From the IMG/VR virus record IMGVR_UViG_3300029258_002856: a stretch of DNA of 64,000 bases, one strand, 5' to 3'. A program made the position numbers and the translations under genes. The notes beneath the pieces were generated by a model. That model worked only from the letters and a program-made list of their open reading frames with translations. It made no database searches and was not told the DNA's origin. The DNA is from a virus. The stretch's first letter is position 1; the number at the start of each line of letters is the position of its first letter. Shown here piece by piece: positions 319 to 50,896 of this stretch.

Positions 319-347
319 TTAAGCCTTTACGTCTTCGTATCTCATCT

Positions 348-356
348 CCTATACTT
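348..356 (+). promoter_or_regulatory. Class A promoter-like motif CCTATACTT upstream of RNAP gene
   Basis: The same motif family lies 20-50 nt upstream of starts at 8657, 10331, 17965, 21580, 25253, 31116 and 36621. Confidence 0.55.
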
Positions 357-379: not shown

Positions 380-3300
380 ATGCCCGAACTTACGCCCATT
401 CTGGTGGACCCAGAGACCCGGCGCGACATGATTCGTGTCAAGGTCTTAGAGGGGTTGAAAGAGTCGTTTCCCCTCAAGGCCCGGAACCGCACTATCGAAG
501 TCGATAACCTCGAAGTCGATACGAAAGAATTCTCATCGACAGACCAGAAGAATGCTCTCTTGCGGGGGGACTCCCTCTTCGAGCGCGTGAAAGGGACGGT
601 TCGTCTCCGCGACAACAAGGGGAAGGTACTGAGCGAGGCATCGAACTTTACGCTAGCTCGCGTCCCATGGTTCACCCCACGCCACACCCTCATCGTAGGC
701 GGCAACGAGTACTCCATTTCCAACATGGTGCGTCCGAAGCCCGGCGTGTACGCACGAAAGCGTGCCAATGGGATTCTGGAAGCGAACTTCAACGTCGTGG
801 GCGGCGCGAACTTCAACGTGAGTATGGACCCCGAAAAGGGTGAACCGCAACTCGAGTACGGCGCGACGAAGGTACCCCTTTACCCCGTATTGCGGAGGGC
901 CGGGGTCAGCCACGAGCGTATCTCGAAAGCGTGGGGGAAGCAGCTGGCCGAAGCGAACTTCAAGAAGCTGTGGAAAAACTCGGGACGCACTATCGACAAG
1001 CTCTACGGGAAAGTCATTCCCGAGTACCGGCGCACTGCCGGTGCGGATACCGAGGCGAAGACGCGGGAAATATTTGCGCGTTACGCCGAAGCGAAGATGG
1101 ACCCCGACGTCAACCGTCAGACCCTCGGCAAGGGATACCGGGAAGTAACCCCCGACAGCCTGTTAGACGCCTCGGGGAAAGTCTTGCGCATCTTCAAGAA
1201 CGCGGACGAGATTGACGACCGGGATAACCTGGACTTCAAGTCCTTCCACTCCGTCGATGATTTCTTCAAAGAGCGTATCAAACTGGACGCACGAGAGATT
1301 GCGCGGAAGGCAGCAATCAAGTCCGAGTCGACTCCGGACGTGAAGCGTATCATCCCCCCTGGTCCGTTTACATCTGGCCTCGTGAAGTTCATCAATAGCT
1401 CCCAGCTTGCGTCAGTTCCTACGCAGACGAATCCCATGGAGCTCATTGACTCCGCGGTGCGCGTCACTTCCCTCGGGGAGGGTGGCATCTCGAGTGAGCG
1501 TGCGATTCCCATGGAAGCACGACAGGTACATGTCACCCAGATGGGAGCGTTGGACCCTATACGCACTCCTGAGTCTTTCCGGGCCGGGATCGATGTCCGC
1601 GCCGCGATGATGGCAAAGCGCGATGCGCGTGGAAACATCTACGTGCCCGTGCTGGACGCGAAAACGCGCCGGGGTAAGTACATCCGCGCAGGGGATTTGC
1701 AACGCTCGGTCGTCGCTTTTCCGGGACAACAGTTGAGGGGACAAGTAGAAGCCCTTGATAACGGTGAAATCAAACGCCTTGCAGCGTCGCGGGTTCAGTA
1801 CCAGATTCCACATGCTTCGGCACTCTATAGCCCCGCGACAAACCTGGTGCCGTTCCTCGAATCAGCACAAGGTAACCGGGCCATCATGGGTTCGAAGATG
1901 CAGGTTCAGGCCCTCTCTCTGGTGGGCCGAGAAGCTCCCATGGTCCAGGTCAAGTCGCAGACGGGGCCTACCTTCGAGCGCATCATGGGTGGGGTCATTA
2001 ACCCAGTCTCCCCGGTGTCTGGGGTGGTCAAGAAAATCGACAAGGACTACATCTACGTCCAACCGGACGGCGAGAAGACCGGAGCCAAGGGCAACAAGTA
2101 TGTAAAGATTCCGTATGAAACCAACTTTCCTCTCGCAGCCAAAACGTACCTTGACCACAAACTTGGAGTACAGAAAGGTGACAAGGTTTCTGCGGGTCAG
2201 CGCTTGGGCGAGTCCAACTTCACGGATAACGGGGTCCTGGCGCTGGGCAAGAATCTGCGCGTAGGCTTCATGGCTTATGACGGGGCGAACTCCAACGATG
2301 CCGTAGTCGTCAGTGAGGGCGGCGCGAAAAAGCTCACGTCCGAGCGCATGTACAAAATCGTGGTCCCTCGAGACCCGGACTTGACATTCAGCCGGGACAA
2401 GCACCGCACTTACTATGGACACGGATATACCAAGGACCAATACAAGCCTATCGATAAAGAAGGCGTGATTGCGCCGGGTACGCAGATTAATCCAGGTGAC
2501 CCCCTCGTCATGGGACTTCGCAAGACACAGCTCACCGCGGATGACGTACTTCTTGGACGGCTGCACAAGTCACTGGCGCGTCCGTTCCGTGAGAACGTAC
2601 ATGATTGGGACCATGACCACCCTGGCGAAGTCGTGGACGTCGTGAAGACGCCCAAGCGAATCGCCATTACTGTCAAGACACGAGAACCTGCTGGCATCGG
2701 AGACAAGGTTGCTGGGCGCTACGGCAATAAAGGGGTCATCTCGCAAATCGTTCCCGACGACCAGATGGTGCGAGACGAGAAGGATAGGCCTATCGACATC
2801 CTGATGACTCCCGCCGGGGTGGTATCTCGTATCAACCCGAGTCAGATTATCGAGACTGCCGTGGGGAAGGTCGCGGAGAAGACCGGAAAGCCGATTGCCG
2901 TAGAGAACTTCTCTGGGCGCAACAACGTTCAATGGGCCAAGGATTTACTCAAGAAACACGGACTCAAAGACAAGGAAACGGTGTACGACCCGCGTACCGG
3001 GCGCAAGATTCCCGGGGTGCTTGTTGGGCGGCAATATATCATGAAGCTCTTCAAGTCCACGGACACCAACTACTCAGCACGGGGCATCGAGAATTACGAC
3101 GTAAACCAGCAACCAGCTAAGGGGGGTACTCAGAGCGCCAAGGTGCTGGGTCGTATGGAGTTCGACGCGCTCCTCTCCCATGGAGCACGGAACGTCTTAC
3201 GAGAAGCCGCAACTCTGAAGAGCCAAAAGAATGACGAGTGGTGGCGCAACATGCAGCTCGGATACCCTACGCCACCTCCAAAGACCACTTTCGCTACTGA

Positions 3301-4732
3301 CAAGTTCCTTACGATGCTTACCGGGGCCGGAGTGCGCGTCGACCGGGAGAAGAACCAGCTTGCACTTGCCCCTCTCACGGACGCGGACACCTTGAAGCTC
3401 TCCTCAGGAGAAATCAAGGACGCCAAGTTGGTGCGTGCCAAGGACTTGAAGCCCGAGCGTGGCGGACTCTTCGACCCCGCAGTTACCGGGGGCGTTCGCG
3501 GAGGAAAATGGTCCCACGTCGCTTTAGCGGAGCCGGTGGTCAACCCCGTATTCCGTGACCCTGTTCGACGTCTCCTGGGGATGACTAACTCCCAACTAGA
3601 CCAGGCTATCCGGGAGAAGGGTGCGCGGCACATCAAGCGCGAACTCGGAAAGCTGGACCTGGATACCAGGGAAAAAGAACTCTACAAATCTCTCCGGGGA
3701 CGTAAAGGTTCTGCGCTGGATAACGATGTCAAGCAGCTCAAATATATCAAGGCTCTCAAGAAGCAGGGCCTCACTCCAGGTGACGCCTACGTCATTTCCA
3801 AAGTGCCAGTGGTGCCCCCAGTAGTGCGCCCAATCCTTCCCGGTAAAGGCGGCCAGGAACTCATCTACGGGGACATCAACCCTCTCTACCGCGACCTCGT
3901 GTACTTGAACAACCAGTTCAAAGATGTCAAGCAGTCCAAGCTGCTGCCCGACGAAGAGCAGCGTTTACGGCCTGCGTTGCAACAAGCAGTCGGGGCAGTT
4001 TACGGGGTAAATGACCCTATCACTGCCAAGTCCAAAGCGCGGGGGCACAAGGGGTTCCTCACATATATCTCCGGTAAGGGAAGTCCCAAGTTCGGGTACT
4101 TCCACTCTAAACTCATGCGCCGTACACAGGACGTATCTGGCCGCGGCACCATTGTTCCCGATGTAACGCTCGGCATGGATGAAGTGGGCCTCCCTGAAGA
4201 TATGCTGTGGTCCATGTACGGGAAATTCACCACCAAACGTCTGGTGGAGAAGGGTTACCAACCTCTTCAGGCCCAGCAGATGATTCAGGAGAAACATCCG
4301 GCTGCGCGAGAGGCGATGCTGCGAGAGGCCAAAGATAGGCCGGTGATGATTAACCGGGCTCCTACTCTTCACCGCTACAACATGATTGGGGCGTACGCCA
4401 GACCGATTCCGGGCAAGACCATTCGGGTCAATCCGTTCCTTGAGAAAGGAATGAACGCGGACTACGACGGCGATACGATGATGGTTCATGTGCCGGTGCA
4501 GTCCAAAGCTGTTGACGATGTGAAGAAGATGACGCTCTCCAACTTACTCTTCGGAGACAAGTCCCGGGATGAGCTCATGGTCTTCCCGCAGCACGAAGCC
4601 ATCATGGGTATCGCACATGCATCTGAGCAGGATTCCGGAGGCGTAGTTAAAAAATTTAAGACTCGGGGTGAAGCGATGAAGGCGTACCATGAAGGTAAAA
4701 TTGGATTAGGGACGCGAGTGAAAATAGGTTAG
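380..4732 (+). CDS. rpoB-rpoC(N): Phage multisubunit RNA polymerase: beta subunit fused to N-terminal/catalytic part of beta'
   Basis: Beta motifs: SLGEGGIS, GNRAIMGSKMQVQA, GDKVAGRYGNKGVIS, RINPSQ, GRMEFDALLSHGA. Beta' motifs follow: KPERGGLFDP, RTQDVSGRGTIVPD, NRAPTLHR and catalytic NADYDGD (nt 4454-4474). SD GGAGG. Confidence 0.95.
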   Translation: MPELTPILVDPETRRDMIRVKVLEGLKESFPLKARNRTIEVDNLEVDTKEFSSTDQKNALLRGDSLFERVKGTVRLRDNKGKVLSEASNFTLARVPWFTPRHTLIVGGNEYSISNMVRPKPGVYARKRANGILEANFNVVGGANFNVSMDPEKGEPQLEYGATKVPLYPVLRRAGVSHERISKAWGKQLAEANFKKLWKNSGRTIDKLYGKVIPEYRRTAGADTEAKTREIFARYAEAKMDPDVNRQTLGKGYREVTPDSLLDASGKVLRIFKNADEIDDRDNLDFKSFHSVDDFFKERIKLDAREIARKAAIKSESTPDVKRIIPPGPFTSGLVKFINSSQLASVPTQTNPMELIDSAVRVTSLGEGGISSERAIPMEARQVHVTQMGALDPIRTPESFRAGIDVRAAMMAKRDARGNIYVPVLDAKTRRGKYIRAGDLQRSVVAFPGQQLRGQVEALDNGEIKRLAASRVQYQIPHASALYSPATNLVPFLESAQGNRAIMGSKMQVQALSLVGREAPMVQVKSQTGPTFERIMGGVINPVSPVSGVVKKIDKDYIYVQPDGEKTGAKGNKYVKIPYETNFPLAAKTYLDHKLGVQKGDKVSAGQRLGESNFTDNGVLALGKNLRVGFMAYDGANSNDAVVVSEGGAKKLTSERMYKIVVPRDPDLTFSRDKHRTYYGHGYTKDQYKPIDKEGVIAPGTQINPGDPLVMGLRKTQLTADDVLLGRLHKSLARPFRENVHDWDHDHPGEVVDVVKTPKRIAITVKTREPAGIGDKVAGRYGNKGVISQIVPDDQMVRDEKDRPIDILMTPAGVVSRINPSQIIETAVGKVAEKTGKPIAVENFSGRNNVQWAKDLLKKHGLKDKETVYDPRTGRKIPGVLVGRQYIMKLFKSTDTNYSARGIENYDVNQQPAKGGTQSAKVLGRMEFDALLSHGARNVLREAATLKSQKNDEWWRNMQLGYPTPPPKTTFATDKFLTMLTGAGVRVDREKNQLALAPLTDADTLKLSSGEIKDAKLVRAKDLKPERGGLFDPAVTGGVRGGKWSHVALAEPVVNPVFRDPVRRLLGMTNSQLDQAIREKGARHIKRELGKLDLDTREKELYKSLRGRKGSALDNDVKQLKYIKALKKQGLTPGDAYVISKVPVVPPVVRPILPGKGGQELIYGDINPLYRDLVYLNNQFKDVKQSKLLPDEEQRLRPALQQAVGAVYGVNDPITAKSKARGHKGFLTYISGKGSPKFGYFHSKLMRRTQDVSGRGTIVPDVTLGMDEVGLPEDMLWSMYGKFTTKRLVEKGYQPLQAQQMIQEKHPAAREAMLREAKDRPVMINRAPTLHRYNMIGAYARPIPGKTIRVNPFLEKGMNADYDGDTMMVHVPVQSKAVDDVKKMTLSNLLFGDKSRDELMVFPQHEAIMGIAHASEQDSGGVVKKFKTRGEAMKAYHEGKIGLGTRVKIG

Positions 4733-6229
4733 ATGCCTTACGCCTCACCAGCACAACGCGCCGCAGTCTGGGCCAAACGCAATGCGCAAGCAGTCCTGAC
4801 TTCGGGAAACCCTGTCACCAAGCAGGAAGTGCACGATTACTACTCTAACCCGGTCATTAAGCAGCGTGTCTTGGCAGCCCTGGCAAACCGGGACCTTTTG
4901 GCAATCCAGTCAAGAAGCCCGGATGAGCAAATCGTCAGGCGCTACCGCAAGAAGAATGAGCCCATTCGTGTTGAGAACCCCGAGGACCTCGACTGGTATT
5001 CCTCTCGACGCTACACCGAGTTCCATCCTACGGTCGGGGAGAAGACGGATGAGGTCTGGGTGGATATCGACCCGGGCAAAAACAAGAATACCGAGGACAC
5101 CAAGGGTCCTACAAAATTTGTCTATGACCTCCTACGCACCATCCCCGCAGTCAAAGCCGTTGAGCTGGCGTTTTCTGGTGGGCGGGGATTTCATGTGCGT
5201 GGAAAACTAGATAAGCCTCGACCGACCAATGAAGCCCGTGGAATGCTCCAGGAGTATCTGAAACAGCTCCCTGAACGGCATACGGAACTCACGCTCAAGA
5301 CGCCGAGGCCAGATGAGATTCGGTTGGATGTCTCTACCTTGCACCCAAAAGGCTCTATCCGGGCTCCGTATTCTCTCAACGCAGAGACGGGTCTCGTAGC
5401 AGTACCGCTCGTTCCATCTCAGCTCGAGAAGTTCAACCCGCAGAAAGATGCGACACCACAAACGGTGTTGGGCAAGACCGAGTTCGCTCCCGGTATCCCT
5501 CAAGAGCGAAAAACATACCCCCTCCCCGATTTCAAGCGACCGAAAACTTGGACTCTCGCAATCCAAGAACACGATGCGCAACGGGCCGGGAAGCATTGGG
5601 ACCTTCGCCTCGTCGACCCTCGAACAACGCATGCCCACTCCTGGGCAGTGCCAAAGGCGCAGTTCCCGCAAGGCAATAGCCCGCTTCTGGCGGTACAGAC
5701 TCCGACACATACGGCGAGGTACGCTCTCACCTTCGGGGAACGCAAACCCAAGGAGATTCGGAAGGGGTATGGAAAGGGCGTCGTTCAAATTTTGCACAAG
5801 GAACCTGTAAAGGTCTTGTCGTCTTCGCCCGATAAAATTAAATTTGAGAGAGACGTGGACGGAAATCCGGAGAGGTACATGCTGTTCAAGTCAAAAGAAA
5901 ATTCATGGTTGATGCGCCGAATCAAAGAAGCGGGGCGTGCAGCTATGCTCAAGAAGTTGGGCGTCGACAAGAGTAAATTCGTGGGCAAGAAACCCTCTAA
6001 CACCGAGCTGGAAACCCCAATGGATGTCGAGGATGAGGGGCTCCCGGCAGGACAGCTTGCTCGTGCCCTCTCGGATATACCGACGGCTGCGGGGCGAGAG
6101 AACCGTGATGCTCAAGGCACTGATGATGTGGAGGGACGCCTCAACCGCACGACGACTTGGACTGAGCCTGACCACATCCCGATTGACTACGCTCAGGGTC
6201 CGTCGCCGGTTATGCCGGGGAAATTCTAA
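4733..6229 (+). CDS. LigD-like primase-polymerase (AEP) + 3'-phosphoesterase fusion, no ligase domain
   Basis: AEP motifs VWVDIDP, FSGGRGFHV, IRAPYSL. PE motifs EHDAQRAGKHWDLRL, HSWAVPK, LAVQTPTH, GYGKGVV. No KxDG adenylation domain seen. Confidence 0.85.
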   Translation: MPYASPAQRAAVWAKRNAQAVLTSGNPVTKQEVHDYYSNPVIKQRVLAALANRDLLAIQSRSPDEQIVRRYRKKNEPIRVENPEDLDWYSSRRYTEFHPTVGEKTDEVWVDIDPGKNKNTEDTKGPTKFVYDLLRTIPAVKAVELAFSGGRGFHVRGKLDKPRPTNEARGMLQEYLKQLPERHTELTLKTPRPDEIRLDVSTLHPKGSIRAPYSLNAETGLVAVPLVPSQLEKFNPQKDATPQTVLGKTEFAPGIPQERKTYPLPDFKRPKTWTLAIQEHDAQRAGKHWDLRLVDPRTTHAHSWAVPKAQFPQGNSPLLAVQTPTHTARYALTFGERKPKEIRKGYGKGVVQILHKEPVKVLSSSPDKIKFERDVDGNPERYMLFKSKENSWLMRRIKEAGRAAMLKKLGVDKSKFVGKKPSNTELETPMDVEDEGLPAGQLARALSDIPTAAGRENRDAQGTDDVEGRLNRTTTWTEPDHIPIDYAQGPSPVMPGKF

Positions 6230-8028
6230 TGGCTGAAGGTCAACCGTTCGGGCGCTGGCTCTTGAATACCCAGTTGCCTTCTGGGTTCAAGGTCAACTCC
6301 CCCGTGGGAAAGAAGCGCCTCAACCAAATGATGAATGACCTGGCGCGCAAGGACCCTACGCAATACACCACGACTATTGCAGGCCTTAAACGTCTAGGCG
6401 ATGAGCTTGCGACGCAGGAAGGCCTCTCCATCGGGCTGGATGACATCGAGCCTGAATACCGGAAACGGGATGCGCAGATGCGTCCCTTCCGTCAGAAGTT
6501 TCAGGCGGCACGTACAACCGCACAGAAGCGCCAGATACTGGAGCAGCTCCACGGAAAAATTACTGATGCCGCCATGAAGCACCGCGGGAGTCTCACGCAG
6601 CAAGTACAGAGCGGTGCTCGCGGTTCTCCCACTCAGTACATGAAGATTGTCGGTAGCCCGGTATACGCTCGGGATGCCAATGGAAAAGTTACTCCTTGGC
6701 TCATCCCACGTTCCTACAGTGAAGGGTTATCGGCTGCTGACTACTGGGCTGCGGGCAACGAAGCTATCTCGGATACCATCAAGTCGAGCACTGCGGTGTC
6801 CGAGCCCGGAGAGCTGTCCAAGATTCTCATTAACAACATGAACGATATCGTGGTGACCGAACAGGATTGCGGAACGGTCAATGGTATCCTCATGGACCCC
6901 AAAAACCCCGATGTTCAAGACCGTTATCTGGCTCGCAGTGAAGGGGGAGTGCGGAAAGACACCCTCATCAGTCCACAGGTGCAAGCCCGACTGGCCAAGA
7001 GCAAGAAGAAAATCCTGGTGCGTTCGCCGATGACTTGTGAGGCCGGTGATGGGGTCTGCCAGAAGTGCCAGGGTCTCAATGAGCGCGGGAACCTTCACAC
7101 AGTAGGCACCAATGTTGGCATCCGAGCAGCCCAGGCCATGGCGGAACCGCTCACCCAGTTCGCCCTCAATGCGAAGCATGGTGTTCGTACGGCCAAGAGC
7201 GACCGCTTGCAAGTTCACGGCATGCAGGGCTTTCGCCAGATGACAGAATCACCTCGGCAGTTCATGAACAAGGCGACCCTGGCAGGGGAAGAAGGGAAGG
7301 TCACGAAGATTGAGAAGGCCCCGCAAGGAGGACATTTCGTCTACGTCGGCAGCACCAAACATTACGTGACTCCCAACATCAACGTTGTGGCCAAGGTGGG
7401 ACAGAAGGTCGAACGCGGAGACGCGCTGAGCGGTGGGATACCCAAGCCAGATGAGGTGGTAGCCTTCAAAGGTTTGGGAGCTGGACGTCGATATATGGTC
7501 GATACGTTGAAGGAACTCTACAAGAACCAAGGACGTAATCTCGACCAACGACACTTCGAGCTGTTGGCCAAAGGCGAACTCAATCACGTACGTATCGTGG
7601 ATGACCCAGGTAGGAACTTCATTCCCGGCGATATTGTAGATTACAATCACTTCCGTTCGATTTTACGGGGTAATACGAAGACTCTTCCATTGACGCAAGC
7701 GCGCGGGGAGACCCTCGGGAAAGAGCACCTCCACTTCTCCGCCGGGACTCGTGTGACTCCTTCGGTGGAGCGGGCACTCCACAAAGAGAAAATCAAGGAT
7801 GTCATCATTGCACCCCGGGCTCCTGAGGTTGAGTTTGTGATGAAGCCCGCTACTAGAGCCCCGCTTCTTAACCCAGATTGGATGGCTCGTTTGGCGCACC
7901 GGAACCTGAAGACAACGCTTCAACAAGCTGCGCACTTTGGTGATGTTACGAATGTCCACGGAACAAATCCCATCCCGGCCTATGTTTTTGGCGTAGAATT
8001 TGGGCAGGGAGAAGAGGGACGATACTGA
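6229..8028 (+). CDS. rpoC(C): RNA polymerase beta' C-terminal subunit (RpoC2-like)
   Basis: GLSIGLDDI; bridge-helix region YSEGLSAADY...DIVVTEQDCGT; Zn site SPMTCEAGDGVCQKCQG; trigger loop AAQAMAEPLTQ...KHG; WMARLAH. Confidence 0.93.
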   Translation: MAEGQPFGRWLLNTQLPSGFKVNSPVGKKRLNQMMNDLARKDPTQYTTTIAGLKRLGDELATQEGLSIGLDDIEPEYRKRDAQMRPFRQKFQAARTTAQKRQILEQLHGKITDAAMKHRGSLTQQVQSGARGSPTQYMKIVGSPVYARDANGKVTPWLIPRSYSEGLSAADYWAAGNEAISDTIKSSTAVSEPGELSKILINNMNDIVVTEQDCGTVNGILMDPKNPDVQDRYLARSEGGVRKDTLISPQVQARLAKSKKKILVRSPMTCEAGDGVCQKCQGLNERGNLHTVGTNVGIRAAQAMAEPLTQFALNAKHGVRTAKSDRLQVHGMQGFRQMTESPRQFMNKATLAGEEGKVTKIEKAPQGGHFVYVGSTKHYVTPNINVVAKVGQKVERGDALSGGIPKPDEVVAFKGLGAGRRYMVDTLKELYKNQGRNLDQRHFELLAKGELNHVRIVDDPGRNFIPGDIVDYNHFRSILRGNTKTLPLTQARGETLGKEHLHFSAGTRVTPSVERALHKEKIKDVIIAPRAPEVEFVMKPATRAPLLNPDWMARLAHRNLKTTLQQAAHFGDVTNVHGTNPIPAYVFGVEFGQGEEGRY

Positions 8029-8576
8029 TGTCGAATTTCGAAGCAGGCTACAACGCTACACTAGCCTCTCTGGGAATAACCAAGGAGGCTCGCATCTGGC
8101 CCGCACTTCGAGGATTCGGGCAGAGGTTCGCCAAAAACTTCAAGCAAATTGCCGTTGGGAGTCCCCTCCAGGCCACGAAAGAAATCATGGCTGGGAAGGC
8201 TCTGAAGCCCGGAGGACTTATTCGAGCGGGATTCGACCCCGGAAAAGGCAAGATGGGACTTCTGATGGGTGGCCTCTTCTACGGGCTCCCGGCCTATCAA
8301 GCGTACAAGGTATATAAGAGCGATGCTCCGAACAAGGCTGAAGAAATCGGCAAGATTCTCGGGGGGACCGCTGCTGGCCTGGGGACCTGGCGTGCTTACG
8401 GGATGTTGGGGTCTATGTTGGCGACGCCAATAGGCGAGCGTCTCGGTGGGGCAGCAGGACGATTAGGACAAACGCTGGCCGGAAAACCTGTTCCGAAAGA
8501 AGCCCCGCCCCCTCCGCCTCCCCGCACAGGGATGTTGCCAGCGCAACCTCAATATGGGATGTACCCCTATTACTAG
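8028..8576 (+). CDS. Basic Gly-rich putative virion internal/membrane-active protein
   Basis: N-terminal G-x4-L-x3-G motif then KEA, hydrophobic Gly-rich segments and a P/Q/Y-rich tail. Confidence 0.6.
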   Translation: MSNFEAGYNATLASLGITKEARIWPALRGFGQRFAKNFKQIAVGSPLQATKEIMAGKALKPGGLIRAGFDPGKGKMGLLMGGLFYGLPAYQAYKVYKSDAPNKAEEIGKILGGTAAGLGTWRAYGMLGSMLATPIGERLGGAAGRLGQTLAGKPVPKEAPPPPPPRTGMLPAQPQYGMYPYY

Positions 8577-8600
8577 GGGTTGGGTTTTTTACAAAGGCGG

Positions 8601-15415: not shown

Positions 15416-15819
15416 TGCGTGCTCTTGCTGCGGAAATTTCGCACACGCTGAGACAGCGTGCGAAGCTGGAGAAAATTGCGGCGGACACGGAGTCGGCAGG
15501 CGTCAGCTACGAAGCCCAGAAGGGTAGTGTTGATGTTTGCAACCGCCTTTACGGCGTACTCCAGAAAGAAGCGTCTTTCAAAGGTGATGGGAAAGACGAC
15601 CTTCGTTTCTGCGAACTCATCACCAAGATGGCGAGTGCTCTTGGGAAAGAGAAGCCTTCCGCGGAGACTCAGCTCAAGTTGGCGGGTGCGGTGATGGTTG
15701 ATTTGGCGCTTCAGCGCGCGCTCAATGACGACATCCCCTACGCAGAGAAGACTAAACTGGCCGCGCAGCAGCTTTACGGGCGGGAATACCTCGCGGACTT
15801 GCTCACCGGAGTTCTGTAG
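15415..15819 (+). CDS. Putative head protein
   Basis: Coupled ORF; EKIAA, QKEAS, LKLAG, TKLAA motifs. Confidence 0.65.
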   Translation: MRALAAEISHTLRQRAKLEKIAADTESAGVSYEAQKGSVDVCNRLYGVLQKEASFKGDGKDDLRFCELITKMASALGKEKPSAETQLKLAGAVMVDLALQRALNDDIPYAEKTKLAAQQLYGREYLADLLTGVL

Positions 15820-17900
15820 TGGATAAGATTATCCGACTCGAGTCACACTTCCCGCAGACGGGAGAGTTGACGGTACAGCCTGTTCTCCTCTGGGCGAACA
15901 ACCGCCCGTGTGTTGAGTCGATAACTAAGCACGCCAGCGTCGGTCACGCCTACTTCAGGACGATACAGCCGATGCCGGGGCACTCCATCGTGTACGTGCT
16001 CGCAGTAAGCAACTGGGAGCACTACGGGGAAAACCGTAACGGCGATGGCTTCCCGGAATTCCCGTACAAGGACCACGAGACTCCTCCTTGGATTGCTCCG
16101 GAGGACGTGCTCCCACTTCACTACAAAACGTTCGAGCAGTTTGGACATAACTACCGTCACCATGCCAACAAGGACCCGAAGAAGGCCGTTGGTAAAGTGA
16201 TGAAGGCGTTCTGGAATCCCAGCATGCACCGCGTGGAGCTGCTGGTTGATTTGGAGGACGAGAAAGCTCCGGACCTGGCTGAGCGCATTGCGAACGGGGA
16301 GTATCCCCCCGTAAGCATGGGTACGAAGGTCCCGTACGATGTTTGCACCATCTGCGGCAACCGTGCACCTACCCGAGCACAGTACTGCGACCACTTGAAG
16401 TTCCAGATGCGCGAAGTCATCAACGGGATGAAGGTGGCGGCCCTCAACCCTCGACCGAAATTTTTTGATATCTCCTGGGTGTTCCGTCCTGCGGACCCAA
16501 CGGCTTTCATGATGAAGAAAGTTGCGGAAGACGCGCCCTACGAGTTACTGAGTGGTTCCCAGGCTGGGGATTACCTGGGCGAGATGCAAGAGCGCAAGTT
16601 GGCCGCGCATAAGCTGGCGGTCATCGACAAAGTAGTCCAAGGCCTCCCCGTTGACGCGAAGACTGACGGTATCGATCCCGCGCAGTTGAACAACGTGCGG
16701 GGAATGCGCACCATCGTCATCATCGCAGGGCAGAACACGCCTTCGTTCCCGGACAATCTACTTCAGAACCTGGCGACGCAGCCTCTCAACCGGGTGCTGT
16801 CTTCTCTCTACGCTTCGGGAATGACGCTCAACACTCCCGAGTTGATGAAGATTGTCGCGTGCAACGCTGCCCCGGGAATGAAGGTGCCTGAGCGAGCACT
16901 CGATAACGGAGTAGCGTTACAGCGCAGCATTATCGAACTGTTCGGCGACGCGCCCCAACTTCTCGACAAGTTCGACAAGAGCGCGGCTCTCGACGTGGGT
17001 GTAGCGCACATAGACAACGCTATCATAGACCTTCTTACTCCGTACCGGGAAAAGCGTGCTGGGATTTCCGAGTACCTCAAGCGCCGTCTTGTTCCCGAGA
17101 AGTATCGAGAGGAGACCCCCTATACGTCCCAAATGACAATCACGGACCCGGCCACAGGCTTCACCTACGGGACCACTCGAGGTGCTGCCATCCGGGCGCA
17201 CGACGAAATAGCCAAACGGAACCTCTACAAAGTTCTGGGTGGTGGTGCACTTCTCGGTGGTGCATACAAGCTCCTCTCTACCGGACTGCGACGTGCAGGT
17301 TACGGGAAGCTTCGACCCCTTGCGGGACTCGCGCTTGGTGCTCTTGGGGCCTATCACTGGCCGTCGATGGGGGCGCACTACATGACAGACCAGGGTATTC
17401 CGGTTCCTATCACCACGGAGCTTGCAAAGGTGGGAGCCTTCAACCCCAAGTCCATCGCTCTGCCCCTCTTCGGAACCTTGGGGACTATGGCGCTTCTCGC
17501 TCACGACTACGGGTCGCGGATGGAGCAAGGTATCCCGATGGGGCACCCGTACCTGCCACTCTCCCGGCGCATACTCGACAAAGTAGAGGCGTTCGCACAA
17601 GAACATCCGCTGTTGGCTACTGGGATTGGGACGCTGGCACTCCATCGTTTGGGGAAGACGCGACCTTTACAGTTTCTGGGAAAAACGGTAATCCCTAAAG
17701 CTACAGATGTTGCACAACGAGGAATGAGTTCAGTGAAGGACCGCGCTTCTGCGGCGATGAAAGCTTTGGCAGGAGGAGAAACCAAATTGTCGGCGTACAT
17801 GGAAGACTTGATTCCTGAACCGACGGACACGGTGATGCTCCCCGAAGTGGACATTGACAAAGTAGCGGAACGCGTCGGATTTTTGATTGTCGAGGGGTAG
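15819..17900 (+). CDS. Prohead (maturation) protease, HK97/assemblin-type serine protease, with hydrophobic C-terminal extension
   Basis: ENRNGDGF; HHANKD (candidate catalytic His); VSMGTKVPYDVCTICGN (candidate catalytic Ser plus CxxC); FFDISWVFRPADPTA. Lies upstream of scaffold-like and capsid genes. GTG start. Confidence 0.8.
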   Translation: MDKIIRLESHFPQTGELTVQPVLLWANNRPCVESITKHASVGHAYFRTIQPMPGHSIVYVLAVSNWEHYGENRNGDGFPEFPYKDHETPPWIAPEDVLPLHYKTFEQFGHNYRHHANKDPKKAVGKVMKAFWNPSMHRVELLVDLEDEKAPDLAERIANGEYPPVSMGTKVPYDVCTICGNRAPTRAQYCDHLKFQMREVINGMKVAALNPRPKFFDISWVFRPADPTAFMMKKVAEDAPYELLSGSQAGDYLGEMQERKLAAHKLAVIDKVVQGLPVDAKTDGIDPAQLNNVRGMRTIVIIAGQNTPSFPDNLLQNLATQPLNRVLSSLYASGMTLNTPELMKIVACNAAPGMKVPERALDNGVALQRSIIELFGDAPQLLDKFDKSAALDVGVAHIDNAIIDLLTPYREKRAGISEYLKRRLVPEKYREETPYTSQMTITDPATGFTYGTTRGAAIRAHDEIAKRNLYKVLGGGALLGGAYKLLSTGLRRAGYGKLRPLAGLALGALGAYHWPSMGAHYMTDQGIPVPITTELAKVGAFNPKSIALPLFGTLGTMALLAHDYGSRMEQGIPMGHPYLPLSRRILDKVEAFAQEHPLLATGIGTLALHRLGKTRPLQFLGKTVIPKATDVAQRGMSSVKDRASAAMKALAGGETKLSAYMEDLIPEPTDTVMLPEVDIDKVAERVGFLIVEG

Positions 17901-17964: not shown

Positions 17965-18657
17965 ATGGCAACTTTGGACCAACTTCTGGGTGATATCGAA
18001 AACGCGGAGAAAACCGCAAGCGCGCAAGCCGACCCCAAAACCGGGGACCAGGCTGCGGCTCAAACGGCCCTCAAGGATGTTCTCGACGAGGCCCAACAGA
18101 GCAAGACCGCTTCGGCGGGAGGCTCCGAGGACCCGGTGGATGCGCTCATGAAAATGGCCGAAGAGCTTGTCGAGTCTGAGAAGGAAGCCGAAGTCGTGCT
18201 GGCCGCGCAATGTGGTCGCGCCTTCGGGGACGCCTTCCTGGAGCAGATTGCTTCGGCGGACGCGGCGGCCAAGGTCGCGGCGGCACAGTACTCCACTGGC
18301 GTCTCCGACCCGCAAATCAGCGATGCGCAGGCTGCGGATATGCTCAAGCAGGCTGCGGCCACGGGCTATGAGCGTGTCCAGCGCCAGCTGGCCCCGGCCA
18401 ACGACCTCGAGGAGGTCGTCAAGGTGGCTGCCGCCCAAGGTCAGGAAGAAGAGCTGCTCAAGCTGGCCGCGCAGGAAGGCTACGACGCTGCGGTTGCGGC
18501 AATGCAGAAGGAAGCAGCTCCGACCTTTGACACCGGTCAGCAGCAGGCGTTGCAAGAAGTTCATGATGTCTGTGCGGCCGAGTTCATGAAGGGTGCGCAG
18601 GAAGTTGCCATGTTCGCCAACCGTGCGGAAGCGGCGCGGCAACAGCAACAGAGGTAA
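17965..18657 (+). CDS. Putative scaffolding protein
   Basis: Ala/Gln/Glu-rich helical sequence with about seven KxA[AS] motifs, between protease and capsid genes. Confidence 0.65.
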   Translation: MATLDQLLGDIENAEKTASAQADPKTGDQAAAQTALKDVLDEAQQSKTASAGGSEDPVDALMKMAEELVESEKEAEVVLAAQCGRAFGDAFLEQIASADAAAKVAAAQYSTGVSDPQISDAQAADMLKQAAATGYERVQRQLAPANDLEEVVKVAAAQGQEEELLKLAAQEGYDAAVAAMQKEAAPTFDTGQQQALQEVHDVCAAEFMKGAQEVAMFANRAEAARQQQQR

Positions 18658-20056: not shown

Positions 20057-20977
20057 ATGACACAGCAATACATGGTTGAAAACCCCGAGGTTACCGCGCA
20101 GTACGTCAACTCGAACTTCGTCCGGAAGATCGAGGAAGGGCGTACCAAGGAAGCCGAGGCGGAGAGTTCGGCGTTCATCCGCGACAAGCTGCGCCAGGAG
20201 GCTGCCGTCCGCGAACTTATCATCCCGCAGGGAATCTCCGAGGAAGAGATTGACCGGGACGAGTTTACGGACCAGCCGAAGAAGATCGTGGACAAGGAGC
20301 CCGACTCGGTGGCCACGTTCGTGCAGTTCCAGGGCACGGGCCGTCGCACCTGGTTCCGCGGCAAGCGGTACGCCGTGTACTTCGGCAAAGTGGAGTCGCA
20401 ACGCTTCACCAAGTCGAAGTTCGAGCTGATGACGTACACCAGCGACATTCGCAAGATTCTTTCGGACAACTCCGTCAAGGACATGGCGGACGAGGAAGAC
20501 AAGAAATTCTACGAGCTGGTGAACGACATCATCGTGGCGGCTGCGGGCGCGCAGACCACGACCGGCCCGTTCCAGAGCGCGACGTTCAAGGCTGCTATGC
20601 AGTCCCTGCTGGACCGTCGTCGCCCGGTGGGCAAGCTCCTCATGACGAAATCCCGCTACATGGACGCCATCGACCTTCCGGCGACTACGGTCGGTGACGT
20701 GATTGCTCAGCGGCACTTCGATGAGGGCATCGAGGCTTCCCAGAAGCTGTGGGGTCTCCCCGTGGTGACCACCATCAAGTCCGACATCTATCCGGGGAAC
20801 AAGGCGTGGGTCTTCTCTCCGCAGATGCCGAACAACTTCCTGGGGAACTTCTTCCTGTTGCAGGACGCTACCCTGTACATCAAGCAGGAAGCCGACATCA
20901 TTTCGTTCTGGAGCTACGAGGCTCTGGGCATTGGTATCGGCAACCGGCTGTCGATGCAGGAAATCACCTTCCCGTAG
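20057..20977 (+). CDS. Candidate major capsid protein (HK97 fold)
   Basis: Follows protease, scaffold and decoration genes; strong SD AGGAGG; strongly C/G-ending codons; compact 306 aa. Confidence 0.65.
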   Translation: MTQQYMVENPEVTAQYVNSNFVRKIEEGRTKEAEAESSAFIRDKLRQEAAVRELIIPQGISEEEIDRDEFTDQPKKIVDKEPDSVATFVQFQGTGRRTWFRGKRYAVYFGKVESQRFTKSKFELMTYTSDIRKILSDNSVKDMADEEDKKFYELVNDIIVAAAGAQTTTGPFQSATFKAAMQSLLDRRRPVGKLLMTKSRYMDAIDLPATTVGDVIAQRHFDEGIEASQKLWGLPVVTTIKSDIYPGNKAWVFSPQMPNNFLGNFFLLQDATLYIKQEADIISFWSYEALGIGIGNRLSMQEITFP

Positions 20978-25252: not shown

Positions 25253-28027
25253 ATGGCGGTACAGCGACCAAACGTTCTTGTTTTTCAGGAGTACCAGACC
25301 ATCTCGGTAGCTCCGGACATCCCCGACTTGAACGTTCTTATCGTCGGTCCTTGCTATCAGCTTCTGGACTACCTGGACGATAAAGACGACATCTACGCGG
25401 CGGACTACGGTACGCTGGACCAGTCGATGGCGGACTACGGGACTCCAGACCCAGTAGTTATCACTTCGCCACCGGACATCGAGGCCGGTGCTATCCTGGA
25501 TTCGGAAAGCGTGAAGATTTTCTTCGATGAACTCCGCGCTGTACTCCTCCGTAACTCCAGTCCCGGTGTCGACGACGCAACCTTCTTCGCCGGGGACAAC
25601 CTCTTCCTGGCCTGGAACGGGACCACAGGTGTGCACTTCGGTGTGGCCGGTGTCGAACCCGGGGACAAGCTCATCACGGAGAGTGGCCCTTCGTCGGCGG
25701 ACTACATCAAGACCGTCAAGGCGTTGGCATACAAGCTCTGGGACCAGGGGGGCGGCGGTACCACTGTCGACTTCCAGGCTGCCGGAGTCGTAGCCGGGGA
25801 CACCCTCGAGATTTTCGACGACCAGGCTACCAACTCCCGCAACGGTACCTATCCCATCAAGGGTATCTGGCAGCAGGGCAACCCCCTGACGGAAGAGGCT
25901 ACCGCGGTCGAGGTCGAAGGCGGTGCCCTCCTGGTCGGGCAGGTTGATGAGTGTCACATCCGGGTGACCTCTGCCGGGGGTACGGTCAAGATCGATACCT
26001 CCGACGACCCCAGCCCCTCGACGCACCGCGTTGAACTGGGGGATTGGTGCCATGCTCGGATGACCACGGACTTCGGAACCGACAACCATGCTTCAGACCG
26101 CGACTGGCGTGTGGAGCGTGAGCTGGATGACATCGAGATTGACGACAGCTACGTGACCGTGGAGGGACAGGTCGTCACCGTCGATGAGCTCGGTACCGGG
26201 GTTGAGGTTGAGGTGAACGAGACGCTGGGCAACAAACCGGTGTCGTTTGCCGAAGTCTACATGGAGTACCGGGCTCTCCGTCAGGACCTCCAGCGCGTTA
26301 TCGAAATCGATTCGGACCGGGCGATGGAAGATACGCTCGGGAAGCTCGACGCTCGCAATCCGCTGTACGTGGGGGCCTTCCTCGCTGCGCAGAACACCAC
26401 GACTCCCGTGAAGGTTTACGGCGTTAAGTCGGATGACCTCTCGGGCTACAACGACTTCATCGACCGCATCAGCGCCGAGCGTGAAGTCTACGCCATCGTC
26501 CCCCTCACCTACGAGACCAGTGTTCTGGGCGTCTTGAAGGTGATGGCGGAGAACTACGCCGACCCGACCTACGTGCTGGACAACGGCATCCGGCAGAAGT
26601 TCCGGGTCATCCTCGGAGCGGTGGACCTTGTTACCCAGCAGTACGTCACCGCTGAGACAGGTGGGGCGTCCACCCAGCAGATTGCGACCCCCGCGCCGAC
26701 CGGGAAGAAGACCCTTACCGTGGCCCCGGTGGACGGTGGAGGCCCCGTCGACCCGGGCTTCGATACGTTGCCGATGGTCCCGGGCCAGAAGGTACTCATC
26801 ACCGATGTCGGTGGCGCTACGACTTACGGCCCGTACACCGTGGCACATGTGAACGCCAGCGACATACTCGAGACGGACGAGGCGCTCAACGCAGCCATCG
26901 TCTCGGGGCTCGCGCTCTCAGCGGCGGGTGACAAGATCGAAGTATTCGAGGCGGACGGGACCACGCTGGTGACCTCCATCGAGGTCGGAGTGGCGGGCAT
27001 CCTGTCCATTACTTTCACGGGGACGGACCTCGACCAGCTCTACAACACGCTCTACTGCCCGACTGCCACCTTCATCGATGACGGTATTATCCCCGGCGAC
27101 ATCGTGCAGATTCCGGAAGACCCGGACAGCAACATCAGCTGGGACAACTACCAGTCATGGGTGGTTGCGTCTGTCGATTCCCAGACCCGACTCACCATCG
27201 TCAACAACGGGACGAACTCCTCGACGGTGGCGAACGAGCTTCCGCACCTCATCAAGAGGGATGGAACTCCAGTGGACCGGGACGTCACCAACGGTCAAAT
27301 CTGGTTCCGGGTGCAGCGGAACATGACCAAGAGCGAGCAGGTAACCTATATGGTTCAGGTCGCGCAGAGCTTCAGCAGCAAGCGCGTCGTGCTCGCCTAC
27401 CCGGACGAGATCGATGTCACGGACCTGGTGGACGGCAGCAAGGACCGCGGTACGGGGACCACTCCGGTGGCTGCGGACGCTCAGCCCGGGTACTACCTGG
27501 CGTGCTGCATCGGCGGTCAGACTGCTGGTCAGCCCCCGCAACAGGGCTTCACGAATCTGGGCATCAACGGGGTCGACCGCATCTACAACTCGAGCGAATA
27601 TTTCACCGAGGCTCAGCTCACGGACCTGTCCAACGGCGGCGTGTACGTCTTCGTGCAAGACAACCCCGACGCGCTCCCCTACTCCATCCACGAGGTCACC
27701 ACAGATGTGCTGGCGCTGGAGACGGGCGAGTACATGGTGGTGAAGGACTTCGACTTCGTTGCCTGGACGTTCCTCGACACGCTCTATCCGTTCATCGGAC
27801 GGTGGAACATCAACAAGGACACCCTGGAATTCATCCGCAAGGCACTGTACGCGACGATTGCCAACCTGCAATCCCGCTACGTAGCGCGCATCGGCGCTCC
27901 GCTCATCGGGGCTACGGTGGATGACGTGTTCCAGGCGACGGAACTCAGCAAGGACCGCGTGGAAGCGTACGTGAGCGTGGACTTGCCGATGACCTTGAAC
28001 ATCATCGGACTGCACTTGGTGGCGTAA
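25253..28027 (+). CDS. Tail sheath protein with large insertion domains
   Basis: 924 aa. Sheath-like C-terminus: RVVLAYPD, PGYYLACCIGG, QGFTN, QLTDLSNGGVYVFVQ, HEVTTD, EYMVVKDFDFV. Confidence 0.8.
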   Translation: MAVQRPNVLVFQEYQTISVAPDIPDLNVLIVGPCYQLLDYLDDKDDIYAADYGTLDQSMADYGTPDPVVITSPPDIEAGAILDSESVKIFFDELRAVLLRNSSPGVDDATFFAGDNLFLAWNGTTGVHFGVAGVEPGDKLITESGPSSADYIKTVKALAYKLWDQGGGGTTVDFQAAGVVAGDTLEIFDDQATNSRNGTYPIKGIWQQGNPLTEEATAVEVEGGALLVGQVDECHIRVTSAGGTVKIDTSDDPSPSTHRVELGDWCHARMTTDFGTDNHASDRDWRVERELDDIEIDDSYVTVEGQVVTVDELGTGVEVEVNETLGNKPVSFAEVYMEYRALRQDLQRVIEIDSDRAMEDTLGKLDARNPLYVGAFLAAQNTTTPVKVYGVKSDDLSGYNDFIDRISAEREVYAIVPLTYETSVLGVLKVMAENYADPTYVLDNGIRQKFRVILGAVDLVTQQYVTAETGGASTQQIATPAPTGKKTLTVAPVDGGGPVDPGFDTLPMVPGQKVLITDVGGATTYGPYTVAHVNASDILETDEALNAAIVSGLALSAAGDKIEVFEADGTTLVTSIEVGVAGILSITFTGTDLDQLYNTLYCPTATFIDDGIIPGDIVQIPEDPDSNISWDNYQSWVVASVDSQTRLTIVNNGTNSSTVANELPHLIKRDGTPVDRDVTNGQIWFRVQRNMTKSEQVTYMVQVAQSFSSKRVVLAYPDEIDVTDLVDGSKDRGTGTTPVAADAQPGYYLACCIGGQTAGQPPQQGFTNLGINGVDRIYNSSEYFTEAQLTDLSNGGVYVFVQDNPDALPYSIHEVTTDVLALETGEYMVVKDFDFVAWTFLDTLYPFIGRWNINKDTLEFIRKALYATIANLQSRYVARIGAPLIGATVDDVFQATELSKDRVEAYVSVDLPMTLNIIGLHLVA

Positions 28028-28662
28028 TGCACGACCTTTTCACCAAGCTGGGAGAAGCCTACGCGTTGAAAACGTGTGGGTATTCTCCTGCCCAGGTGAA
28101 GCAGGCCTTCATGCTCCGTGGGCTGACAGAAGCAGACGCTGATGGGCTGGTGAAGGAAGCGTGGTGGGGTGCCCTGGCTAAAGGGCTAGCTCGCGGGGCG
28201 GGGATGCTCGCTAAAGCCGTTGGCCGGGGTGGGGCAAAAGCCGTGGCTAAGGGTGCACCGTCGTTGAGTAAAATCAAACCCCTGGCGCAAGGTGCGGGAA
28301 AGATAGTACCGACGGCTAAGGGTGCACCGTCGGTGTTGACCTCCATGTCGACCATGCAGCGTACCGCAGGCCCACAGTCCAAGATGCTCCGTGGGATGTT
28401 ACAGGGCGGCAAGTGGAGTCAGCGGGCTGGAGGAATGCTTCAGCGCGGGGGGCAAGCACTGAGCAGTGCCATGTCCGGGATGGCTCAAGCACCAGGACGT
28501 ACGCTGTGGCGTGGAGGCGGGAACTTCATGCGTGGTATGATGTTCTCACCCCAGGCACGGGGAGTTGGCGGCGCTCTAGGAAAGGGAGTGTCCGCTTATT
28601 CGATGGGAAGCATGCTGCTGCCAGCGGGACAACCGCAAATGCCGCAGCCGCGTTACTACTAG
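28027..28662 (+). CDS. Basic Gly/Ala-rich putative virion internal protein
   Basis: G-x4-L-x3-G motif, KQA and KEA motifs, amphipathic basic body, P/Q/Y-rich tail. Confidence 0.6.
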   Translation: MHDLFTKLGEAYALKTCGYSPAQVKQAFMLRGLTEADADGLVKEAWWGALAKGLARGAGMLAKAVGRGGAKAVAKGAPSLSKIKPLAQGAGKIVPTAKGAPSVLTSMSTMQRTAGPQSKMLRGMLQGGKWSQRAGGMLQRGGQALSSAMSGMAQAPGRTLWRGGGNFMRGMMFSPQARGVGGALGKGVSAYSMGSMLLPAGQPQMPQPRYY

Positions 28663-47325: not shown

Positions 47326-47535
47326 ATGTCACACTACGAATTGGGCTACAGGCATACGCTGGTCAAACTGGGAGTTTCCCCGGAACTAGCCAGGGCTGCC
47401 GTCAATAAACATCTCCTTCGTGCGTTGTGGGAATCCATCAAGAGGAACCCGCTTCGTCCTACCCGCCATCTCGGTAGTTCGCTAGACGCTTTGATAAAAA
47501 GATATCCCCGGACTCTCGCTAAGGGTGTAAAGTAA
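47326..47535 (+). CDS. Small basic protein carrying the putative virion-targeting motif
   Basis: MSHYELGYRHTLVKLGVS closely resembles the N-terminus of 8028. Confidence 0.6.
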   Translation: MSHYELGYRHTLVKLGVSPELARAAVNKHLLRALWESIKRNPLRPTRHLGSSLDALIKRYPRTLAKGVK

Positions 47536-47622: not shown

Positions 47623-47694
47623 GCCTCTATAGTTCAACTGGTAGAGCAGGAGGTTTCAATCTCTTAGTTCCAGGTTCGAGTCCTGGTGGAGGCG
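47623..47694 (+). tRNA. Atypical tRNA-Trp-like gene with TCA triplet in a 6-nt anticodon loop
   Basis: Acceptor GCCTCTA/TGGAGGC; D-arm GTTC-AACTGGTA-GAGC; T-arm CCAGG-TTCGAGT-CCTGG; discriminator G; anticodon stem GGAGG/TCTCT with loop TTTCAA. Confidence 0.7.
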
Positions 47695-47715
47695 CTCAAC
47701 CAAAAGGAGAACACA

Positions 47716-49833: not shown

Positions 49834-50300
49834 GATACCTGCTGGCGCTAGCTTTCATACTGTCCATTCCGTGCGTCTCGATGGCCGATGAAGATGAAGA
49901 CCCCTACCAGGTACGGCGGCACCTCCCTACCGTGAAGACGACCGTCATCGAAGGGAAGAGCTACAAGTGCTTGGACAAGGACCAGTGGAAGACCGTGATG
50001 CTCATCGCGCTCGACTACCAGGGACTCTTCGACTGGCGGCTCAAGATACGTGGGGTTCTCGAAGCCCACGACCAAATCCTCGAGACCTACGAGTTGAAGA
50101 TTTCCAACTATGAGTCGATGTTGAAGGTCCAAGAAGCGAACGTCGGCTACTACAAAACTCGCCTGAAAGACGTGGAAGACCGACTCGGAATGGGCAACAT
50201 CGAGGACCGCCTGGAAAAGTACGCGCTCTGGGCAGTCGTACTCATCGAAACAGTGACCATCGCGGTAATGGGAATCAAATCCTACGCGGACGCGAACTAG
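49830..50300 (+). CDS. Exported coiled-coil protein with C-terminal TM
   Basis: Signal peptide MRYLLALAFILSIPCVSMA; C-terminal TM YALWAVVLIETVTIAVMGI. Confidence 0.6.
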   Translation: MRYLLALAFILSIPCVSMADEDEDPYQVRRHLPTVKTTVIEGKSYKCLDKDQWKTVMLIALDYQGLFDWRLKIRGVLEAHDQILETYELKISNYESMLKVQEANVGYYKTRLKDVEDRLGMGNIEDRLEKYALWAVVLIETVTIAVMGIKSYADAN

Positions 50301-50896
50301 GGATAACCAGGACCGTAGTACTGCTGGGGATAGGGACTCTCCGGTTGCCCCTTGTTGCCAAGCAGTGCGTACCCGCCGAGACCGGCCGCTCCGAGTCCCA
50401 GTCCCCACTTCAGCTTTCGCCCGAGAGTCCAGGGTGCTCCTTCTTCGGTCTTGGGAGTTTCTGCCAGCATGCCGCCGCCTTGTCGGACTTTCCCTGCGCT
50501 GCCGCCAGGACCTGGGCGGAAGCCGGAGAGACGCGGGTCTCCGACGTTGAGTGTCGCGCCGGAACGGATATGCCGTGTTGCTCGTCCAGGAGTACCCTTG
50601 GCCACGGGCATCTCACCTACCAGGCGGCCTTTCCCGGACAACACACTCTTGGCCTGTGCGAACATTCCGGGTTTACGAACAGCTCCCGCAGCGGGTAGAG
50701 CAACGTTACGCCCTTTGCCAATGAGGCTCCGGAAGAAGTTAGCGGCTTGGCGGCGGAACGCTTCCTTCGTCATCCCGCATTGGGCCGCCACCTTCTCCAA
50801 CTCCGCATCCGGCATCAGCAGCAGCCCTTGAAGCATCGCTATTTTATCTGCTGCGTACTTCTCCAGGCCCAACTGTCGCATAGTTTCGAGATACAT
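50297..50896 (-). CDS. Basic Gly-rich putative virion protein located in the accessory region
   Basis: SD GGAGG; MYLETMRQLGLEKYAA...EKVAA; C-terminal TM and P/Q/Y tail, the same architecture as 8028 and 28027. Confidence 0.7.
   Translation of the reverse strand: MYLETMRQLGLEKYAADKIAMLQGLLLMPDAELEKVAAQCGMTKEAFRRQAANFFRSLIGKGRNVALPAAGAVRKPGMFAQAKSVLSGKGRLVGEMPVAKGTPGRATRHIRSGATLNVGDPRLSGFRPGPGGSAGKVRQGGGMLAETPKTEEGAPWTLGRKLKWGLGLGAAGLGGYALLGNKGQPESPYPQQYYGPGYP

Follow-up and report, generated by a model that had tools for sequence, protein, structure and literature searches.

A ligase-less LigD-type polymerase-phosphoesterase encoded between the split RNA polymerase genes of an environmental phage, and its possible packaging into the virion

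To our knowledge, the polymerase (Pol) and 3'-phosphoesterase (PE) domains of LigD have been described only as components of double-strand-break repair in cells. In bacterial LigD they accompany a ligase domain, in the order Pol-PE-Lig in Mycobacterium tuberculosis and PE-Lig-Pol in Pseudomonas aeruginosa, and the archaeon Methanocella paludicola, with a stand-alone polymerase of non-homologous end joining (NHEJ) and a PE without ligase (PDB 5dmu, 5dmp, 3p4h), provides a precedent for separate domains. Here we describe a viral protein of this kind, encoded in a stretch of 64,000 nucleotides of the IMG/VR virus record IMGVR_UViG_3300029258_002856 (hereafter the window, to which all coordinates refer). 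The gene, at 4733..6229 on the plus strand, is an open reading frame (ORF) for a protein of 498 amino acids (P0001), and is called Pol-PE below. Both catalytic folds and all active-site residues are the same as in bacterial LigD, and the order of the domains, Pol then PE, is that of the mycobacterial enzyme. Pol-PE differs from cellular LigD by the lack of a ligase domain, no Ku or ligase having been found in the phage clade either, by the location of its gene inside an RNA polymerase (RNAP) operon close to head genes, and by a C-terminal module of about 105 residues that is absent from cellular LigD. Literature searches revealed neither a LigD-type Pol-PE in a phage nor an enzyme of this kind in an RNAP or head operon.

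Mycobacteriophages Omega and Corndog reportedly encode Ku and borrow the LigD of the host for genome circularisation. There, as proposed here, NHEJ components of a phage act on the incoming genome, but the division of labour is opposite, since in our case the phage supplies the end-processing domains and no Ku or ligase was found. The genes flanking Pol-PE point to another known system, the multisubunit RNAPs packaged in virions (phiKZ, the AR9 virion RNAP, Gp206 and Gp216 of Salmonella phage Arash). They are orthologues of the two Arash genes (36% identity for Gp206, ~30% for Gp216), beta' is split in the same way and, as in Arash, the RNAP genes adjoin the portal gene. Unlike the window, Arash, the Vibrio phages considered below and phiKZ have no Pol-PE in or near their RNAP genes, and none has been reported. 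For the loading of proteins into heads, the closest comparison is the capsid-targeting sequence of phage T4, carried by the internal proteins and Alt and cleaved by the prohead protease gp21, which is likewise a short leader on unrelated proteins. Here, too, small proteins carry a leader with a conserved tripeptide behind it, one also present in the N-terminal region of the capsid protein, and the enzyme would be delivered with the DNA. Unlike in T4, the leader of Pol-PE is internal and heads a module able to stand alone, the candidate site is K-x-A/G instead of L/I-x-E, and the scheme is a predicted one. Short terminal peptides also carry enzymes into HK97-fold shells, for example the C-terminal tail of the HK97 protease and the cargo-loading peptides of encapsulins; these have no sequence relation to the Pol-PE module, for which such loading is putative.

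The identity of the two catalytic domains is secure. The Pfam scan of the protein matched LigD_Prim-Pol (PF21686) at residues 69-248 (59.3 bits against a cut-off of 27.4) and the LigD_N phosphoesterase (PF13298) at residues 278-353 (32.6 bits against 31.1), and it detected no ligase domain. An AlphaFold2 model, computed from an alignment of 37 relatives, was confident over residues 30-397, and largely disordered from 398 to 498 with short helices at 399-408, 438-447 and 466-470. The polymerase domain (4820..5482, plus strand, residues ~30-250), of the archaeo-eukaryotic primase (AEP) type, was matched by Foldseek to the NHEJ polymerases 5dmu, 2iry and 6sa1 (E ~1e-12, target TM 0.65-0.68), and its alignment to 5dmu paired DIDP with DLDP and SGGRGFHV with TGSRGLHV, that is, the catalytic DxD and the SGxRGxH motif. 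For the phosphoesterase domain (5534..5923, plus strand, residues ~268-397), the family profile matched PDB 3p4h with an E value of 7.4e-14, and the Foldseek target TM was 0.85 to 3p4h, 0.82 to 3p43 and 0.62 to 3n9b. Residues H280/H288/D290/R292/H326/Y330 align to His42/His48/Asp50/Arg52/His84/Tyr88 of P. aeruginosa LigD (3n9b), in which the first three form the Mn triad and the last three are phosphate ligands (catalytic roles reviewed in PMC8656161), and Q278 and S303 are the counterparts of Gln40 and Ser61. As D111, D113, D199, S148, G149 and G152 of the polymerase and Q278, H280, H288, D290, R292, S303, H326 and Y330 of the phosphoesterase are invariant among the 37 relatives (42-62% identity), both active sites are intact and under selection. 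The preliminary description of this locus, made from the letters of the window, had proposed an AEP polymerase and a 3'-phosphoesterase without ligase; Pfam, Foldseek and profile matches all bear this out, and the catalytic His and Asp residues, whose loss would have spoken against it, are retained. Pol-PE is thus a catalytically intact, ligase-less LigD-type enzyme. Polymerases of this type can fill gaps or extend 3' ends, and Mn-dependent phosphoesterases of this type can remove 3'-phosphates and trim 3'-ribonucleotides. Also, the N-terminal 20-30 residues (MPYASPAQRAAVWAKRN, window 4733-4822, with a helix at 6-19) are conserved in about one third of the family and absent in the remainder; they may constitute a second, optional docking peptide.

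The gene lies between those of a fused RNAP beta and N-terminal half of beta' (380..4732, plus strand, 1450 amino acids, NADYDGD motif, Pfam Rpb2_6, Rpb1_1 and Rpb1_2) and of the C-terminal half of beta' (6229..8028, plus strand, 599 amino acids, Pfam Rpb1_5). A fourth gene follows (8028..8576, plus strand), encoding a basic, Gly-rich protein of 182 amino acids with an N-terminal leader-like motif, then K-E-A, and a P/Y-rich C-terminus. At the upstream junction (4730-4735, ggt TAG ATG cct) the stop codon of the beta/beta'N gene abuts the start of Pol-PE, at the downstream junction (6226-6230, TAATG) the stop of Pol-PE overlaps the start of beta'C, and the 8028 gene starts on the last base of the beta'C stop codon. 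A sigma-70-like promoter match precedes the genes (326..355, plus strand), a consensus match of a kind no commoner than in shuffled sequence, and a sequence scan placed a terminator-like hairpin with a T-run at their end (8563..8590, plus strand). On the basis of these junctions and flanking signals, we consider the unit as four coupled genes. The translational coupling of Pol-PE between the two RNAP genes had been claimed before and is upheld, whereas the description of 8028 as a head-cluster gene needs correction: it is the fourth gene of the RNAP operon, upstream of the protease, scaffold and capsid genes, and a role in the head is unproven. The operon is placed between the portal gene, an orthologue of which (30% identity to Arash gp204, E 4e-105) stands directly upstream of it in the near-complete relative G1, and three head genes of the window. 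These encode a prohead protease (N-terminal domain) with a long C-terminal extension (15819..17900, plus strand; phrog_18299 head maturation protease, 2.3e-10), an acidic, Ala-rich, scaffold-like protein whose role is suggested by position and composition only (17965..18657, plus strand), and the major capsid protein (20057..20977, plus strand; phrog_2522, 8e-4).

A tblastn search with the Pol-PE protein gave no match in 50,697 isolated phage genomes. In metagenomes, at least 120 clusters of full-length Pol-PE homologues were found, on contigs of up to 185 kb. The survey of gene neighbourhoods that the preliminary description had called for revealed that the order beta/beta'N, Pol-PE, beta'C, 8028-homologue is invariant in 32 IMG/VR loci, in which the stop/start overlaps and the position of Pol-PE are also kept despite protein divergence to 40-60% identity. 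The nearest cultured phages, Salmonella phage Arash and Vibrio phages D69, D148 and D181, have the split RNAP in common with the window (36% identity), with different genes in the gap between its halves.

The C-terminal extension of Pol-PE contains a short leader-like motif (the tag), IKEAGRAAMLKKLGVDK (5921..5971, plus strand, residues 397-413, family consensus [YF]xxGYxxALxKLG), which had been noticed for its likeness to the N-terminal start of ORF 8028, MSNFEAGYNATLASLGITKEA. After the PE domain, the Pol-PE family has the consensus [DS]-M-[ST]-x-x-[YF]-x-x-G-Y-x-x-A-L-x-K-L-G, and proteins of the 8028 family start with M-[ST]-P-[FY]-x-x-G-[YRWH]-x-x-[AV]-[LFY]-x-x-L-G-[LI]-x-K-x-A, so that M-[ST]-P-[YF]-x-x-G is common to both, in register. 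A profile built from the Pol-PE family only found, in the six-frame translation of the window, the N-terminus of ORF 47326 as its top match (22 bits) and ORF 8028 as its third. Conversely, a profile built from the N-termini of the 8028 family only had the Pol-PE tail as its top match in the 170-kb relative G2 (17.6 bits, E 7e-4). The cross-family matches, the one to ORF 47326 (E 8e-6) included, had E values of 8e-6, 1.5e-3 and 7e-4, and hhalign of the tail family against the 8028 family gave P 1e-4, confined to 19 columns. The sharing of the motif between the Pol-PE extension and the 8028 N-terminus is therefore well borne out by the profiles, from which we judge that it is not due to chance.

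Tag carriers comprise the Pol-PE tail, the 8028 family, ORF 47326 and the ORFs at 35027, 53451(-) and 52960(-) of G1. Apart from Pol-PE, they are mostly basic, Gly-rich proteins (16-19% Gly) of ~180-210 amino acids with P/Q/Y-rich ends; the exception is the product of ORF 47326 (47326..47535, plus strand), which has 69 amino acids, is not Gly-rich, and matches the Pol-PE tag profile best of all, by its N-terminus MSHYELGYRHTLVKLGV. In the small proteins the tag is N-terminal with K-x-A after it, whereas in Pol-PE it is internal with K-x-A/G before it. Two other proteins of the window resemble the carriers. A Gly-rich basic protein of 211 amino acids ending in RYY (28027..28662, plus strand) is built like the 8028 protein; the motif profile did not score this copy in the window, and its likely G1 counterpart, the orthology of which follows from position and shared motifs only, bears an N-terminal tag. 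A Gly-rich protein of 199 amino acids with a P/Y-rich end (50297..50896, minus strand) has a weak N-terminal tag, MYLETMRQLGLEKYA, a motif match that alone is not significant (E 2.7). The motif profile gave no significant match in Arash, Vibrio phage D69 or the more distant relatives L035 and L036. As a separate observation, the scaffold-like protein at 17965-18657 contains internal GY-x2-A-h helices followed by K-E-A (e.g., EGYDAAVAAMQKEAA) that resemble the leader motif, and the leader may copy a segment of the scaffold.

The tag heads a module of about 105 residues (5912..6226, plus strand), in which the tag helix (399-408) is followed by a PAGxLAxxL helix (438-447), by RLNRxTxW (469-476) and by a P/G-rich end with Phe as its final residue. 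A search of 1.84 billion representatives with a profile of these ~105 residues recovered Pol-PE tails and also about 16 proteins of 95-118 amino acids that start at the tag Met, part of them on contigs shorter than 1.3 kb, where truncation artefacts are possible. By the whole-tail profile, the module is single-copy per genome; only its first ~22 positions are common to other proteins. Its context varies. P0260 consists of helicase, Pol, PE and tail, and P0269 of the tail, a second tag and a Gly-rich protein. In L066 the gap between the RNAP genes (L066:2613-8330) holds genes for a 214-residue protein, an SNF2 helicase, a DUF5662 protein, a Gly-zipper protein and a 451-residue protein, and after these five an ORF of 141 amino acids, composed of a remnant of the PE C-terminus and a complete tail, of which the stop codon overlaps the beta'C start. 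This locus has thus lost the enzyme and kept the tail. The 451-residue protein of L066 has a GS...DxD motif and may be a nucleotidyltransferase. Loci related to those of P0252, P0248, P0255 and P0260, sought in viral contigs, and of P0253, sought in genome contigs, were not found.

In about two thirds of the relatives (L003-L034), an in-frame ATG stands at the start of the tail, ~300 nt before the end of the Pol-PE gene, with a Shine-Dalgarno-like AAGGAG or GAGGGAG 6-9 nt before it. In these, the tail might also be translated alone, as a nested gene like lambda C/Nu3. Such a nested gene was rejected as a general feature, as six relatives and the window copy have no Met at that position; the only nearby Met of the window copy, M394, aligns to the last strand of the PE domain.

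The best-supported mechanism, to which we give a probability of about 0.45, is that Pol-PE is packaged into the virion with the RNAP by means of its C-terminal module. Pol-PE would be made in step with the virion-type RNAP of the phage, and the module, which in its first 20 residues copies the leader found at the N-terminus of several small Gly-rich proteins, would bring it into the assembling head. There, cleavage by the head protease at the K-x-A/G site that immediately precedes the tag may release the enzyme. Once injected together with the DNA and the RNAP, it would clean and fill those 3' ends of the incoming genome that are damaged or recessed, and a host ligase would seal them; it is by inference only that we attribute to Pol-PE the end repair or circularisation of incoming DNA.

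The location of the operon between portal and head genes, the virion proteome of Arash and the K-x-A/G sites make the packaging of Pol-PE plausible. In mass spectrometry of Arash virions, Gp206, the orthologue of RNAP beta, was the most-detected protein (3516 spectra) and Gp216 (beta') the fifth (1210 spectra), and the helicase Gp217 was also listed (PMC10585845). The helicase in the gap of L066 is 36% identical to Arash Gp217 (E 2e-84), and the orthologous helicase is the one fused in front of Pol-PE and tail in P0260. The candidate protease site of the window copy, K398-E399-A400 (5924..5932, plus strand), belongs to a pattern conserved among the family linkers: 34 of the 37 Pol-PE proteins have K-x-[AG] in the variable linker that leads to the tag, for a background of 0.0045 per position. 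Near the N-terminus of the capsid protein, the same tripeptide is found at K31-E32-A33 (nt 20147-20155), with K31 and A33 invariant and E32 nearly so in 25 relatives. By analogy, the tag with K-x-A fits a scheme of leader plus protease site like the T4 capsid-targeting sequence. Co-folding of the capsid protein, the scaffold-like protein and the first 40 residues of the tail gave a score of 0.00 without controls, which is evidence neither way.

A Ku or ATP-dependent ligase partner, for which a search had also been recommended, was not found in near-complete relatives by searches that were not fully sensitive. These searches, and those for primases, covered the genomes of the relatives. The ATP-dependent ligase family PF01068 was absent from the 95-97% complete relatives G001 and G002, Ku (PF02735) was absent from five relatives at limited search sensitivity, and no NAD-dependent DNA ligase or Rnl2-type RNA ligase was found in the near-complete relatives. 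A search for an Rnl1-type RNA ligase was uninformative, its controls being silent too. With the ligase of relative G003 as query, tblastn gave no match in the window, G1 or G2. The negatives for Ku and ligase are soft, because the same searches missed the known PE in three relatives: the first-look filter did not report PF13298 in G001, G004 and G005, all of which clearly encode the domain.

Several points weigh against packaging as we propose it. Neither Ku nor a ligase turned up in the near-complete relatives, so that a complete end-joining pathway does not seem to be encoded. The Arash preparation contained 116 proteins, and its authors allow for the carry-over of abundant enzymes (PMC10585845). 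Arash itself has neither Pol-PE, by tblastn, nor the tag, by motif profile. Also, the tag is internal in Pol-PE, unlike the N-terminal leaders of the small proteins. Finally, the stand-alone module is found on long contigs as well (P0250/P0274, 28 kb; P0253, 119.6 kb; P0255, 165.9 kb), with lengths of 104-118 amino acids. This stand-alone occurrence, together with the retention of the tail in L066 after the loss of the enzyme, argues that the module has a role of its own and is not simply a cargo label. The idea of a virion-cargo tag, advanced in the preliminary description, therefore stands in part: the tag is shared beyond chance and its genomic setting agrees with packaging, but it heads a larger module and is not merely a label for cargo.

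Pol-PE could instead be an unpackaged intracellular enzyme of repair or recombination, lodged in an insertion-tolerant gap and with a tail that binds an intracellular partner. The content of the gap does vary in the wider lineage, from nine unrelated genes in Arash and two small genes in Vibrio phage D69 to the five of L066; the RNAP genes themselves hold insertions of ~1-1.4 kb in many relatives, and in the distant L035 and L036 the Pol and the PE lie elsewhere, on genes or domains of their own. This alternative does not easily account for a position and overlaps kept through 32 loci, nor for a tail leader held in common with head-region proteins, and we regard it as rather unlikely, if still a serious contender. 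The tail might also be a small RNAP-associated subunit or assembly factor that tethers Pol-PE to the polymerase, the enzyme acting on the 3' ends of RNA in RNA:DNA hybrids, where it might turn transcripts into replication primers by trimming and extending them, or clear nascent RNA of blocked 3' ends. Consistent with such a tether, the tail ORF always ends on the beta'C start codon, even in the enzyme-less L066, short motifs are conserved in the disordered tail as in docking peptides, and it is established that the PE of LigD resects 3'-ribonucleotides on primer-templates and that the Pol of LigD prefers ribonucleoside triphosphates (PMC8656161). Nevertheless, the RNAP of Arash and of the Vibrio phages works without such a module, and the tag is also found on Gly-rich proteins with no evident link to transcription; a tether of this kind seems to us distinctly unlikely.

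Several relatives are labelled 'DNA primase' by the Joint Genome Institute (JGI), and the DnaG-type catalytic core PF08275 was not found in the relatives, which could suggest that the AEP domain is the replicative primase of the phage. However, relatives G002 and G004 carry a Toprim-type protein of ~1170-1195 amino acids, of which the G002 copy matches phage DNA primase families (phrog_47, 2.5e-10), and on this ground a replicative primase was rejected as the principal interpretation. Moreover, the closest solved structures are NHEJ repair polymerases and not replicative primases, and the fusion to a domain that heals 3' ends points to repair, so that we see very little room for this role. Even less credit is given to a chance likeness of amphipathic helices as the origin of the shared motif. 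The motif is short (~19 residues), and the single sequence P0001 matched the 8028-family profile weakly (4.1 bits, E 4.8); but chance is disfavoured because independent family profiles find each other, with the in-register consensus and hhalign value given above.

Turning back to packaging, a broader proposal is that the whole clade of abundant environmental phages of ~170-180 kb packs a ligase-less NHEJ-type end-processing enzyme with its RNAP by means of a portable leader module of ~105 residues. The cargo would be exchangeable (Pol-PE, helicase-Pol-PE, or none), and the injected enzyme would heal or fill 3' ends, either in the incoming genome or in the RNA:DNA hybrids that the co-injected RNAP makes, before the expression of any phage gene. 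We hold this extension to be tentative, possible more than probable.

The more distant relatives differ in the organisation of these domains. In L036 (159 kb; L036:550-15506), an ATP-dependent ligase forms the N-terminus of a protein of 1796 amino acids, Prim-Pol and rubrerythrin form the C-terminus of a protein of 1743 amino acids, and the PE lies in a protein of 782 amino acids. In many relatives, the RNAP beta/beta'N gene is interrupted by insertions of ~1 kb and ~1.4 kb, the positions of which are fixed: near beta residue 778 (L005, L009, L019, L020, L024-L028) and at residues ~1366-1398 (L006, L007, L015, L021, L028, L033, L066). Inteins, introns or homing-endonuclease cassettes are possible identities for them; the gene in the window has no such insertion. 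Just downstream of ORF 47326, right after a tRNA-Pro, ARAGORN placed a tRNA-like gene (47623-47695) with an undetermined anticodon ('tc').

If Pol-PE is injected, the healing of DNA or RNA 3' ends would represent a new class of pre-made phage functions of the first minute of infection, beside the virion RNAPs. An injected Pol-PE could help the phage to survive host nucleases that leave 3'-phosphates or damaged ends. Also, a leader module with swappable cargo, if confirmed, would offer a natural means of loading these capsids with foreign proteins, and would provide a packaging code that can be tested, in a lineage of phages very common in metagenomes, where its capsid-protein family comprises 968 clusters.

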